Positions 3,371 through 6,916 of a DNA stretch of 39,178 bases are shown here, piece after piece. The stretch covers positions 1 to 39,178 of the forward strand of contig CAYWJO010000033.1 of assembly GCA_964458565.1 (NCBI GenBank), in the 5' to 3' direction. This DNA is from an uncultured archaeon (lineage in GTDB: Archaea; Asgardarchaeota; Thorarchaeia; Thorarchaeales; Thorarchaeaceae). Every line of letters starts with the position of its first letter. Position 1 is the stretch's first letter. The position numbers were made by a program, and so were the translations under genes. Under the pieces are notes generated by a model. The model searched no databases and was not told the origin of the DNA. It worked only from the letters and a program-made list of their open reading frames with translations.

Positions 3371-5113
3371 ATGTTCTTTACGCGTTCCGAAAAATATCCC
3401 CTTGAACACATGATTGATGTTGCAGCTGGTCGAACCTATGCGGAAACAGTTCTTGAAAATGCAAATGTTGTGAATGTATTTACAGGTGAGATACAGAAAG
3501 GAGATATAGCAATCTATAGTGGTTTTATAGCTGGTATTGGAGATTACAAGGGGAATAGGGTCATCGACCTGAAAGGAAAATATGTAACCCCTGCATTCAT
3601 TGACGGACATGTTCACGTTGAATCCTCAATGGTCATGCCCATCCAATATGCTCGAGCAGTGGTACCCCATGGTACAGGTGCAGTAATTGCTGACCCACAT
3701 GAGATTGCTAATGTACTTGGTATGGAAGGTATCATGTACATGAGCAAATCGATGCGAGGTTCACCACTAGACTTCTTCATTATGCTGCCTTCTTGTGTGC
3801 CTTCAACTGATCTGGAAACCAATGGAGTGGCACTTGATTTTCTTGATCTCCGACCCTTGATGACAGAGCAAAATGTCCTTGGCTTGGCTGAAGCCATGAA
3901 CTATCCAGGAGTTGTGTTTAAGGATCCGGAGATTTTAGAAAAAATAAGAGTAGCTCTAGAGCATGGAAAAAGGATTGACGGTCACGCACCTGGGCTCGAT
4001 GGAACTGATCTCAACGCATATGCGGCGGCACGTATCACATCGGATCACGAATCTATAACCCTTGAAGAGGCAAAAAGAAAACTAGCAGTTGGAATGCAGA
4101 TTCACATTAGGGAAGGTTCAACAGCGAAGAACCTCAAAGCGCTCTCAAAGGCCATCCAACCTCATACAGCAATGTTTTGCAGTTTTGTTACTGATGACCG
4201 AAACACATTGGATTTGATAACCAAAGGTCACATTGATAGCATGATTAGAGATGCCATCTCATATGGTGTCGACCCCATACATGCTATTCAGGTAGCTACG
4301 ATTTCTACTGCAAGACACTATGGACTAAGGCATACAGGATCGATAGCACCTGGTCACTATGCGGATCTTGTTGTGTTAGATTCCATCGAGAAAGTAAACG
4401 TGGAAATGGTATTCAAGCATGGAACTCTTGTTGCAAGGGAAGGAAAGCTAACTGAGGAATTTGGCGTTGACCGACCAACAAGACTCCGACGCTCTGTTAA
4501 TATTCATTGGCTAGAACCCGGTGACTTCCAAGTCAAAGCTGAGGGAAACCTGATGAATGTTATCGGTTTGATTCCAAATCAGATTATTACTGACCGCTTG
4601 ATTGAGGAGACAAAAATAGTAGATGGACTTGCTGTGCCAGATATAGATAGAGACATTGCAAAGATTGCGATTATTGAACGGCATAATGCAACTCCTCCAC
4701 AAGCTTTTGGTTTTGTGAAAGGTACCGGGATCAAAGAAGGAGCAATGGTATCGTCCATTGCCCATGATAGCCACAATATCGTTGTTGTAGCGACAAATGA
4801 TCATGATCTTGTTGCTGCAGCTGTTCAAATAGTTCGTATGCAAGGTGGAATTGCGATTGTTCGTGATGGCAAAGTCCTTGAGTCCTTACCCCTGCCAATT
4901 GCTGGACTAATGTCTGAACAACCAATTGAATTTGTAAGTGAAAAACTCACGTCTCTGAAAGCAGCAGCTAGGGAGATTGGGAGTGAATTAGAGGAACCCT
5001 TTATGGCAATGGCTTTCCTCTCACTACCCGTGATTCCGAAGCTTAAGATAACCGATCTTGGATTGATTGATGTCGAACGATTCCGTAAAATTGGTTTATT
5101 CGAGGTAGAATAA
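3371..5113 (+). CDS. ade: Adenine deaminase
   Basis: DGHVHVESS, DPHEIANVLG, EAMNYPG, DGHAP, SDHES, IREGS, TDD, SIAHDSHN and FLSLPVIP motifs of AdeC. Confidence 0.96.
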   Translation: MFFTRSEKYPLEHMIDVAAGRTYAETVLENANVVNVFTGEIQKGDIAIYSGFIAGIGDYKGNRVIDLKGKYVTPAFIDGHVHVESSMVMPIQYARAVVPHGTGAVIADPHEIANVLGMEGIMYMSKSMRGSPLDFFIMLPSCVPSTDLETNGVALDFLDLRPLMTEQNVLGLAEAMNYPGVVFKDPEILEKIRVALEHGKRIDGHAPGLDGTDLNAYAAARITSDHESITLEEAKRKLAVGMQIHIREGSTAKNLKALSKAIQPHTAMFCSFVTDDRNTLDLITKGHIDSMIRDAISYGVDPIHAIQVATISTARHYGLRHTGSIAPGHYADLVVLDSIEKVNVEMVFKHGTLVAREGKLTEEFGVDRPTRLRRSVNIHWLEPGDFQVKAEGNLMNVIGLIPNQIITDRLIEETKIVDGLAVPDIDRDIAKIAIIERHNATPPQAFGFVKGTGIKEGAMVSSIAHDSHNIVVVATNDHDLVAAAVQIVRMQGGIAIVRDGKVLESLPLPIAGLMSEQPIEFVSEKLTSLKAAAREIGSELEEPFMAMAFLSLPVIPKLKITDLGLIDVERFRKIGLFEVE

Positions 5114-5200
5114 TAGACCCGAATTAGCATTGGTTGTCATAATACTCATAAGGAGTTATTGTCAGCCCTGCTGATGATGTGCATATAGGGATCTACAAAC

Positions 5201-5377
5201 TTGTCTGAGATACCAATGCCAGGAGATTATGGACATCCCGAATCTCGTCCTACTAAACAGGATGGGGTTTGCAATGAATGCTGTGAAGGTACTTGCAGAG
5301 CGATAGGTATTTGCATTTTCATTTTAGTCATGATATTCCTATTTTATTATCTGGTTGTGGGTATATCATTCTTCTAA
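5201..5377 (+). CDS. Cys-rich tail-anchored microprotein, array copy 1 (58 aa; TTG start; not in ORF track)
   Basis: Manual translation: MSEIPMPGDYGHPESRPTKQDGVCNECCEGTCRAIGICIFILVMIFLFYYLVVGISFF*. Paralogous to the three following ORFs. Confidence 0.85.
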   Translation: MSEIPMPGDYGHPESRPTKQDGVCNECCEGTCRAIGICIFILVMIFLFYYLVVGISFF

Positions 5378-5455
5378 GACTTAATCCACGATAACGATAT
5401 TAATAAGAATGACTTCATCACACCAGAGCAAAGTCCAAGAGAGAGAGAAAGAACT

Positions 5456-5629
5456 ATGTCAGAAATACCAATGCCAGGGGATTACGGTACATCCGAACCC
5501 CGAGGACCTCAGCAAAAGGGATTCTGCGAACAATGTTTTGAAGGCTCATGTAAACTAATCTTAGCCTGTATTTTCATGATTTTAATATTTTACATCTTCA
5601 TGGCGATCATGTTTGGATCAATCTTTTAG
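5456..5629 (+). CDS. Cys-rich tail-anchored microprotein, array copy 2 (57 aa; not in ORF track)
   Basis: Manual translation: MSEIPMPGDYGTSEPRGPQQKGFCEQCFEGSCKLILACIFMILIFYIFMAIMFGSIF*. Confidence 0.88.
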   Translation: MSEIPMPGDYGTSEPRGPQQKGFCEQCFEGSCKLILACIFMILIFYIFMAIMFGSIF

Positions 5630-5640
5630 AGATGGAGTTC

Positions 5641-5705
5641 CATAAGCCTATTAAGATAGAATGCAACTAGAAGAATCTAGAGTTAAAACTATCCTTCTTG
5701 AGGGA
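5641..5705 (+). promoter_or_regulatory. Putative promoter unit for copy 3 (TATA-like TATTAA 5649-5654, inverted repeat CTAGA-agaa-TCTAG 5667-5680, SD-like GAGGGA); duplicated at ~5900-5964 for copy 4
   Basis: Elements read directly. TATTAA also precedes copy 2 (5398-5403). Function is inferred. Confidence 0.5.
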
Positions 5706-5714
5706 ATGAGAGAT

Positions 5715-5888
5715 ATGTCAGAGATACCAATGCCAGGGGATTACGGTACATCTGAATCCAGAGGTCCTCAACAGGATGGATTCTGCAGTCAGTGTTGTGA
5801 AGTTTCATGTAAAGCGGTCTTAGCTTGTATTTTCATAATTGTTGTGATATTCATCTTTTTGATGATCTTGCTTGGATCACCCTTTTAG
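5715..5888 (+). CDS. Cys-rich tail-anchored microprotein, array copy 3 (57 aa)
   Basis: MSEIPMPGDYGTSESRGPQQDGFCSQCCEVSCKAVLACIFIIVVIFIFLMILLGSPF*. Start moved from 5661 to 5715 by alignment with the paralogs and the upstream GAGGGA. Confidence 0.88.
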   Translation: MSEIPMPGDYGTSESRGPQQDGFCSQCCEVSCKAVLACIFIIVVIFIFLMILLGSPF

Positions 5889-5973
5889 AGATGGATTTCC
5901 ATAAGCCTATTAAGATAGAATGTAACTAGAAGAATCTAGAGTTAGAAATATCCTTCTTGAGGGAATGAGATAT

Positions 5974-6165
5974 ATGTCTGAGATACCAATGCCAGGAGAT
6001 TATGGTCAATCGCAACCGCCACAACCTGCGCAGAAAGGATTCTGTAGTAGTGTATGTGAATGGTCCTGTAAGGGATTAGCAATATGTTGTATCGTGATTG
6101 TTGTCATATTTCTGATATTTTTCACGATAGTTCTCAATAGCTTTCCATTTAGTATCTTCTACTAG
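5974..6165 (+). CDS. Cys-rich tail-anchored microprotein, array copy 4 (63 aa)
   Basis: MSEIPMPGDYGQSQPPQPAQKGFCSSVCEWSCKGLAICCIVIVVIFLIFFTIVLNSFPFSIFY*. Start moved from 5965 to 5974 by paralog alignment. Confidence 0.88.
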   Translation: MSEIPMPGDYGQSQPPQPAQKGFCSSVCEWSCKGLAICCIVIVVIFLIFFTIVLNSFPFSIFY

Positions 6166-6232
6166 CAGAATTAATCCAATGCATTGCGTCGCGTTTATAA
6201 CATGACATCAATTATTATTTGATATGTAACAA

Positions 6233-6916
6233 ATGGGGCAGAGATACCCTTTGACCGAATCGGATGAAGACAGCAATAATAAATCGGTTCAACTTGACGA
6301 TGGAGGTTTTATTGAACGAGTTGTGCGAGCTCTTGAGTTGACTGAGGGCGTTGAAATTGCACGCAGATATCTTGCAATGAATGCTTTTGATGGAGCACTT
6401 ACAATGTTGGGTCTCCTACTAGGTGGTCTCCTTACAATGGATCCGGCTCATCCTCAACTTGTCTTCAATTCAATTCTTCTTGCTGCTGTTGGTACAAGCG
6501 TAGCTATGGCAGTTTCTGGATTTAGTGGTTCATATCTCGCTGAATCTGCTGAGCGAGAGAGAGAAGTAGATGAGATTGGCAAAGCAATGCTCTCTGACAT
6601 GAGTGAATCAATGTATGCAAAAGCTACTAGAACCACTTCTGTTGTAGTCGCAATAGTTGATGGTTTATCTCCCGCAATCGCAGCATTCATCATTATTATA
6701 CCATTGATGTTTGTTCCATCTGGAATTCTAAATCCCTTTGTATCATTTTACATGGCTATCGTCATTTGCATGATGCTACTCTTCACTTTGGGGCTCTTTC
6801 TAGGACGAGTATCAGGAAAGAGTATGCTTGGATATGGAGCGAAGACTCTGTTTGCAGGAATTGTGACAGCATTACTTATGCTCCTGATATCATTTCTGAC
6901 AAGTGCTGAGGTCTAG
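6233..6916 (+). CDS. VIT1/CCC1 family membrane protein (Fe2+/Mn2+ transporter family)
   Basis: ARRY..MNAFDGALT in the first TM, SGFSGSYLAESAERE motif, about 5 TM helices. The start could instead be the TTG at 6251. Confidence 0.85.
   Translation: MGQRYPLTESDEDSNNKSVQLDDGGFIERVVRALELTEGVEIARRYLAMNAFDGALTMLGLLLGGLLTMDPAHPQLVFNSILLAAVGTSVAMAVSGFSGSYLAESAEREREVDEIGKAMLSDMSESMYAKATRTTSVVVAIVDGLSPAIAAFIIIIPLMFVPSGILNPFVSFYMAIVICMMLLFTLGLFLGRVSGKSMLGYGAKTLFAGIVTALLMLLISFLTSAEV

Follow-up and report, generated by a model that had tools for sequence, protein, structure and literature searches.

Tandem genes for cysteine-rich microproteins

The sequence studied here (hereafter, the window) is a 39,178-nucleotide stretch of DNA from an uncultured archaeon of the family Thorarchaeaceae (Asgardarchaeota), contig CAYWJO010000033.1 of the assembly GCA_964458565.1, taken at its full length. 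Between positions 5201 and 6165 it contains four paralogous open reading frames (ORFs) on the same strand, copies A to D (Table 1), with a start-to-start spacing of 255, 259 and 259 bp. The encoded microproteins share the N-terminal sequence MSEIPMPGDYG (hereafter, the head); the invariant columns among the four copies include Q20, G22, C24, E29, C32 and C38, and the last residue is F or Y in each. An initial annotation of the window, made from the letters alone, had described four paralogous ORFs of 57–63 amino acids (aa) with this period, an invariant head, cysteines 24, 32 and 38 kept in all copies, and a hydrophobic C-terminal helix ending in an aromatic residue. All of these features were confirmed by re-reading of the ORFs, by alignment, and by matches between the paralogs within the genome (E-values from 1e-14 to 1e-36).

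The four ORFs are real, selectively maintained genes. Purine blocks resembling Shine–Dalgarno sequences are located 8–15 nt upstream of every start, both in the window copies and in their relatives. Copy A has a TTG start preceded at about 13 nt by the Shine–Dalgarno-like TAGGGA, whereas copies in the same array position in two related loci (L054 and L055) start with ATG. Between paralogs, the 11-codon head has no non-synonymous and 1–5 synonymous changes over 6.7 synonymous sites. In codons 12–46 the ratio of non-synonymous to synonymous substitution rates (dN/dS) is 0.2–0.5, and dS ranges from 0.6 to saturation. The copies are therefore old, and it is the protein rather than the DNA that is conserved. 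A scan of positions 4900–6500 with Rfam models yielded nothing at E ≤ 1.

Across the family the head follows the consensus M-[ST]-E-I-P-M-P-x-D-Y. It is followed by a disordered linker, P/Q-rich or acidic, with a conserved K/E-G at its end, and then by a single continuous helix. The first two to three turns of this helix carry four to six cysteines on one face, and the remainder is the membrane anchor; most cysteines (24, 27/28, 32) belong to the turns ahead of the membrane, and the membrane part itself contains one or two (38, 41). The hydrophobic stretch of the copies extends from residue 26–27 to the C-terminus (within 0–8 residues of the end). In the AlphaFold2 model of copy B, built from an alignment of 37 sequences, residues 1–22 are disordered and residues 23–56 form a single helix, with a mean predicted local distance difference test score (pLDDT) of 78. 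By helical geometry, the residues at the cysteine positions 24, 27, 28, 32 and 38 would lie within an arc of about 140 degrees, and the polar E25, Q26, E29 and K33 would face the opposite side of the helix. We refer to this putative arrangement as the cysteine stripe.

The microproteins are too short for co-translational targeting and have one transmembrane (TM) helix at the extreme C-terminus and no signal peptide. Thus, the C-terminal hydrophobic stretch and the modelled helix support the earlier assignment of tail-anchored proteins without a signal peptide. The N-terminus is probably cytoplasmic (N-in topology), since K/R residues precede the TM helix, and the homologous long paralogues described below likewise have K/R ahead of this helix, with a Thr-rich stalk and a jelly-roll domain after it. 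A Get3/ArsA-type ATPase present in the genome is a candidate tail-anchor insertion factor; no DHHC palmitoyltransferase was found in the genome. The ESM Atlas search for look-alikes of copy B gave no score above 0.79. One family member retrieved in the search of representatives, P0012 (94 aa), contains its Cys-rich segment as an internal tandem repeat, with EEGCCERCCTCS occurring twice.

The microproteins constitute an undescribed family that was found only in Thorarchaeaceae. A profile made from the four peptides detected one or two copies in 15 of the 36 sampled Thorarchaeaceae genomes, and outside this family, in a sample of the phylum, it gave one marginal match (E-value 0.004) with a stop codon. 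The loci from the species-representative collection are labelled Candidatus Thorarchaeota, a few of them Promethearchaeota or Hermodarchaeota, which supports the Asgard origin given in the initial annotation. All 37 orthologues in the alignment have P7 and C24, and each of M1, E3, P5, Y10, G22 and C28 is present in at least 90% of them. An exhaustive hidden Markov model search with this alignment among 1.84 billion cluster representatives returned 19 matches. The 17 that were read are Thor-type microproteins or long paralogues, plus P0023, a compositional match to two adjacent cysteines and a TM helix; P0023 and P0020 (2194 aa, outside the 17 read) are the two weak or unexplained matches. No Pfam family matches the microproteins, and a literature search on CYSTM proteins in archaea, on tail-anchored proteins of Thorarchaeota and on small proteins of Asgard archaea found nothing relevant. 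Homologs thus occur in related genomes, and no characterised family was matched.

One of three readings offered by the initial annotation was a prokaryotic homologue of the eukaryotic CYSTM proteins. The layout is indeed similar as far as it is generally known: both are small proteins that lack a signal peptide, begin with a P/Q/G/Y-rich segment and have cysteines in or beside the TM helix at their C-terminus. However, the Pfam CYSTM profile gave an E-value of 8.1 for one of 21 family members, no match at E ≤ 1 for the four peptides and nothing at E ≤ 10 in the whole genome. No recognised CYSTM protein was among the 17 matches read from the exhaustive search, and the N-terminal part of the microproteins is homologous to lineage-specific archaeal proteins instead. 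Membership in a CYSTM-like family is therefore not supported. Homology appears largely refuted at the level of sequence, and we regard it as extremely improbable.

A shared N-terminal head on unrelated membrane proteins

The head is not confined to the microproteins. Profile–profile comparison over the head and linker links them to a family of type II membrane proteins of about 190 aa (probability 98%, E-value 2.2e-13), in which the same head is followed in turn by a P-rich linker, K/R-G, a TM helix and a domain of 130 aa. The domain was modelled as a jelly-roll beta sandwich (pLDDT about 90) and had only generic structural matches with weak scores. Three genes of this type (~190–207 aa) with drifted heads are present in the genome of the window (G000:C16:114-677, G000:C16:1136-1699 and G000:C52:2244-2864). 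The same jelly-roll ectodomain also occurs in head-less proteins of about 585 aa in related genomes.

A degenerate DNA pattern for the head uncovered a further family of 120–145 aa with four TM helices, which is present in multiple copies, up to eight per genome, and has no Pfam match. Some of its paralogues have the head, while others begin directly at an RPLG motif before the first TM helix. The fourth architecture is a PspC-domain protein of 74 aa, in which the domain occupies residues 18–74 (E-value 2.9e-25) and the 17-residue N-terminal extension starts with MSEIPTPG. On these other proteins, too, the head is at the extreme N-terminus, 10–30 residues before the first TM helix. Hence a short motif at a fixed position, as expected of a sorting tag, is found on four architectures.

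In the genome of the window, eight ORFs start with the motif [TSA]-E-[IV]-P-[MLIVFT]-[PA] after the initiator residue, and in each of them a TM helix begins between residues 16 and 38; reversed or scrambled control motifs retrieved 0, 0 and 1 ORFs. Among 250 sampled Asgard genomes, the DNA pattern of the head was found in 34 of 59 Thorarchaeaceae genomes. In the other 191 genomes it was found in six, where it fell in ribosomal protein S27e or in short non-membrane frames and in no membrane protein. Control patterns had no matches in this search and one in an earlier search of 41 genomes. Within the family, the genera g1, g2, g3, g6, g7, g10, g12 and g13 have the head, and g4, g5, g8, g9 and g14–16 lack it. 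On sequence grounds, the head can be regarded as a portable N-terminal element of probable N-in membrane proteins, restricted to Thorarchaeaceae.

A second reading of the initial annotation was that the constant cytoplasmic head is a docking motif for one partner. It came closest of the three. The idea of a motif recognised in the cytoplasm is retained, and that of a single private partner is not, as the head is shared with unrelated membrane proteins. The head is exact in all four copies even though the zinc-finger genes adjacent to this locus in relatives were not found in the genome, it occurs on proteins from unrelated loci, and the small gene persists where the adjacent orthologue of the transporter gene VIT1 is lost. 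The head therefore cannot be the docking site of a private partner from this locus.

The third reading was that of precursor peptides with a conserved leader. The head and linker would be removed after the conserved glycine, and a Cys-rich hydrophobic peptide of about 35 residues would be released, similar to a ribosomally synthesized and post-translationally modified peptide (RiPP), a pilin or a secreted membrane-active peptide. The conserved N-terminal part next to a more variable Cys-rich C-terminal part, the nearly invariant G22 after a mostly charged residue, and the tandem arrays of diverged copies are all compatible with this. On the other hand, annotation of the neighbours bears out the earlier remark that no RiPP maturase is adjacent, and no maturase, peptidase or exporter is encoded within 10 kb. 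The same putative leader is carried by the PspC-domain, four-TM and jelly-roll proteins, and the former two are not peptide precursors. About ten polar or Cys residues separate G22 from the hydrophobic stretch, compared with none in class III signal peptides, and the glycine is followed by Arg or Lys in the long paralogues. Pilin_N does not match the microproteins, and they lack the features of a class III signal peptide. We therefore judge a cleaved leader to be very improbable.

Given the homology of their head and linker to the N-terminus of the type II family, the microproteins could alternatively be decoys in the manner of microProteins. Minimal tagged anchors would compete for the factor that reads the head, or pair with TM helices, and so tune the larger tagged proteins. 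The head is exact in the microproteins and drifted in the three long paralogues of this genome, and the copy number is expanded in this lineage, in agreement with such a role. However, several of the genomes with microproteins (for example G012, G023 and G031) showed no ~190-aa paralogue at E ≤ 1e-5, and a simple decoy would need no conserved Cys cluster. This explanation is quite improbable in our estimate.

Candidate readers and partners of the head were also considered. A gene of the Get3/ArsA family (G000:C1:30727-31692) lies directly downstream of a head-bearing four-TM gene, but this adjacency is specific to this genome (0 of 16 relatives) and is probably coincidental. A Sec23_trunk-like domain (44.8 bits, cut-off 27; G000:C11:34759-35361, inside a 549-aa ORF) was rejected as part of a reader of the head: the Sec23/24-like protein occurs in 15 of 16 sampled genera, including those without the head, and was not found in g13, so that its distribution is unlike that of the head. 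WW domains were not found in the genome; the control genomes were equally empty, which makes this search uninformative. In two loci of genus g10 (L095:408-1064 and L110:348-1013), a head-bearing four-TM gene is tail-to-tail with a gene for a protein of about 220 aa, whose N-terminus looks VIT1-like by eye and which has no Pfam match.

History of the locus and its neighbours

In related genomes the gene order is adenine deaminase (+), a gene for a 294-aa protein (-), a gene for a membrane protein of about 440–500 aa (-), the small gene (+) and VIT1 (+). VIT1 is followed by a D-cysteine desulfhydrase-family enzyme (+), an AAA ATPase and further genes. The two minus-strand genes overlap by 4 bp and constitute a two-gene operon of about 2.5 kb (L031:3485-5871 in one relative). 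The 294-aa protein is B-box-like, and the large protein has a zinc-ribbon or B-box-like region; the Pfam matches of both to B-box, FYVE and IBR-type zinc fingers are weak and below the curated cut-off. In the window, the deaminase gene ends at 5113 and copy A begins at 5201, and both minus-strand genes are absent between them. Neither was found elsewhere in the assembly, which is 93% complete. The other neighbours in the window are histidine kinases, the D-cysteine desulfhydrase-family enzyme, the AAA ATPase and a large unassigned protein.

The arrangement with the deaminase directly followed by small genes is present in three independent assemblies, with three, at least two, and two tandem copies; among these, the Joint Genome Institute (JGI) contig continues into VIT1. 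When the head is left aside, the sequences nearest to copy D are the last array members of other assemblies (L054c, 58%; P0004, 46%) and the single-copy gene of genus g12 (L005, 52%). Copies B and C group with L054a, and C is closest to B and L054a (57–63% identity). Because D groups with the last array members and single-copy orthologues, and B and C with L054a, the array predates these lineages, and copy D is probably the ancestral copy. The small gene is single-copy in relatives and has multiplied to two to four copies in the lineage that lacks the operon. A tandem pair of small genes is also present in another genus (G210).

Table 1. Positions of the microprotein genes, adjacent regions and other head-bearing genes. 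Positions without a prefix refer to the window; G000 is the genome of the window.
Feature	Position	Strand	Details
Junction after operon loss and promoter-like region of copy A	5114-5200	+	Based on comparison with relatives
Copy A	5201-5377	+	58 aa; TTG start; dN/dS 0.16 against C and D
Copy B	5456-5629	+	57 aa
Spacer IG1	5630-5714	+	Promoter- or 5'UTR-like region of copy C
Copy C	5715-5888	+	57 aa; a longer version in the ORF list uses the upstream ATG at 5661
Spacer IG2	5889-5973	+	Promoter- or 5'UTR-like region of copy D
Copy D	5974-6165	+	63 aa; alternative ATG at 5965
Gap between copy D and VIT1	6166-6232	+	TATA-like TTTATAA at 6194-6200
VIT1/TIGR00267-family membrane transporter	6233-6916	+	Pfam VIT1, E-value 1.4e-7; NCBIfam TIGR00267, E-value 1.8e-21; syntenic in >30 loci
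Four-TM family genes	G000:C1:30224-30631; C27:2004-2366 (-); C1:66907-67341		Further copies lack the head
PspC-domain protein	G000:C48:16549-16770	-	74 aa; PspC E-value 2.9e-25

Candidate promoter elements were found upstream of the small genes. The sequence CTCATAAG is located at positions 5145–5152 upstream of copy A, and in most genera a motif of the CTCATAAG type precedes the small gene by 55–65 nt. The spacers IG1 and IG2 are 94% identical, while their flanking genes differ at 41–62% of synonymous sites, and L054, a related genome, retains two blocks of the spacers. This pattern fits constrained promoter and 5' untranslated region (5'UTR) elements combined with some gene conversion. Parts of IG1 and IG2 are similar to the conserved promoter region that precedes VIT1 in relatives, which suggests that the duplication unit took this promoter with it. 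Of 13 relatives examined, 12 have a conserved motif of the AATCCATTAATTTATAAC form between the small gene and VIT1, and therefore VIT1 is probably transcribed from its own promoter. Each small gene and VIT1 have separate promoter-like elements.

The position of the small gene suggests that the microprotein could be a metal-handling accessory of VIT1. The cysteine stripe would capture or sense iron, manganese or another thiophilic metal at the inner face of the membrane, and deliver it to the exporter or regulate the latter, much as small bacterial proteins modulate transporters. More than 30 loci of at least eight genera have the small gene and VIT1 on the same strand, with the small gene 60–120 bp upstream; the microprotein has a conserved Cys cluster that probably faces the cytoplasm; and a D-cysteine desulfhydrase-family gene follows VIT1. 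However, synteny in the family covers the entire region of about 12 kb, and hence the adjacency of the two genes alone says little. VIT1 has its own conserved TATA-like element, and in genus g4 about 200 bp separate the zinc-finger gene from VIT1, and the small gene is missing from this interval. Conversely, two g7 genomes and one g13 genome have the small gene without an adjacent VIT1 orthologue; in G006, G031 and G012, which have the small gene, only a VIT paralogue of 48–50% identity is present, elsewhere in the genome. The head is also present on proteins encoded at unrelated loci. A prediction of the complex of two VIT1 chains with copy B, with alignments as input and without controls, scored 0.00 and speaks neither for nor against binding. 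A link with VIT1, drawn mainly from synteny, is possible, and the accessory role as a whole we consider unlikely.

The divergently encoded zinc-finger membrane protein could also be the partner, binding the head and controlling the peptide. The small gene is head-to-head with the large zinc-finger gene, at a distance of about 150–200 bp, in 35 of the 39 loci retrieved, and the lineage of the window combines the loss of the operon with an expansion of the small gene. On the other hand, the large gene is present in 33 of 36 Thorarchaeaceae genomes and the small gene in 15 of 36; the four copies are under purifying selection with an exact head in a genome where neither zinc-finger gene was found; and all the Pfam zinc-finger matches of the candidate partner are under the curated cut-off. 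We find this explanation very doubtful, at about the level of the cleaved leader or slightly below it.

The large zinc-finger protein (P0006; L005:1-1314 (-)) appears specific to Thorarchaeota, with a relative of 34% identity in the sister family. In proteins of this type, TM helices at the N-terminus and a TM hairpin at the C-terminus flank a cytoplasmic region rich in cysteines. A sequence search of PDB with the zinc-finger region found nothing below E = 0.17, and ESM Atlas returned only its own Thorarchaeota cluster.

Possible function and relation to known systems

Our preferred and still tentative reading is that the microproteins are tail-anchored with N-in topology and carry a cytoplasmic cysteine stripe, which probably binds metal, and that the head is a general recognition tag. 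Because the same motif occurs at the same position on unrelated membrane proteins of the lineage, a portable recognition signal for one common cytoplasmic factor seems the most likely role of the head. Such a factor could serve in sorting, insertion, anchoring or turnover of the tagged proteins. The microproteins would be the smallest tagged anchors, and their own payload would be the juxtamembrane cysteine stripe. The stripe could bind metal or bridge helices in an oligomer by metal- or thiol-mediated pairing. Metal coordination or helix pairing is the most plausible of its roles, since the cytoplasm is reducing and no DHHC palmitoyltransferase was detected.

Several observations weigh against this reading. 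The putative metal binding is proposed on chemical grounds. The spacing of cysteines is C-x2-CC-x3-C in the window and CC-x2-CC-x-C in most relatives, and their number also varies. About half of the Thorarchaeaceae genera have no small gene, so that the gene is dispensable. The head could possibly be removed by cleavage after G22, given that this glycine is nearly invariant and follows a mostly charged residue. Finally, the motif is short, and some of the proteins may have it in common because they inherited the same N-terminal segment, and not because one reader recognises them.

We also speculate on a broader proposal, in which M-[TSA]-E-[IV]-P-x-[PA] would be a new cytoplasmic sorting or recognition signal of an Asgard lineage, a short linear motif that marks unrelated N-in membrane proteins for a dedicated reader, with the microproteins as its minimal, dosage-amplified clients or adaptors. 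In this general form the proposal is rather unlikely to hold.

Beyond the initial annotation, the analysis adds the sharing of the head, the lineage-specific expansion accompanied by operon loss, and a probable separate promoter of VIT1. The shared N-terminal tag, rather than the CYSTM-like layout, is the most interesting property of the microproteins. One reason to study Asgard archaea is the search for traces of eukaryote-like membrane organisation, and the sorting and recognition of their membrane proteins are almost entirely unexplored. An element of 7–11 residues under strong purifying selection, found on at least four unrelated architectures and in one family, provides a concrete handle on this question. 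The microproteins add an undescribed Cys-rich tail-anchored family with a clear locus history, tractable for the question of metal binding at the membrane.

The comparison with CYSTM proteins (PF12734) is limited to layout. Like the microproteins, they are small, lack a signal peptide, begin with a low-complexity region and have cysteines at the membrane helix with which they end. In contrast to CYSTM, to which no sequence relationship was detectable, the microproteins have most of their cysteines on the helix just before its membrane part, and an invariant N-terminal motif within a segment homologous to archaeal type II proteins.

Transporters can be modulated by small membrane proteins such as MntS, KdpF, AcrZ and MgtS. 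The microproteins resemble these small proteins in having fewer than 70 aa, a single helix and a gene next to a transporter gene. In contrast to these systems, no homology was found, the promoters are probably separate, and the small gene and an adjacent VIT1 orthologue do not always occur together. The concept of microProteins derived from larger paralogues comes from plant and animal regulators. Similarly, the peptides described here correspond to the head–linker–TM module at the N-terminus of a larger paralogous family, but they have an additional conserved Cys cluster and do not strictly co-occur with that family.

Lineage-specific tags are known both in N-terminal regions (YSIRK-G/S, KxYKxGKxW, ESPR) and at C-termini (PGF-CTERM, which is recognised by archaeosortase, PEP-CTERM and LPXTG). 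The head shares with tags such as YSIRK-G/S, PGF-CTERM and LPXTG a short motif at a fixed position by a hydrophobic helix, presence on unrelated domains, and confinement to a lineage. In contrast to them, it precedes the signal-anchor or tail-anchor helices of probable N-in proteins rather than cleaved secretion signals; its sequence resembles none of them, and no processing or recognition enzyme is known for it. If true, the interpretation of the head as a sorting signal would be analogous in its logic to eukaryotic cargo-sorting motifs or to tag systems of the sortase type.

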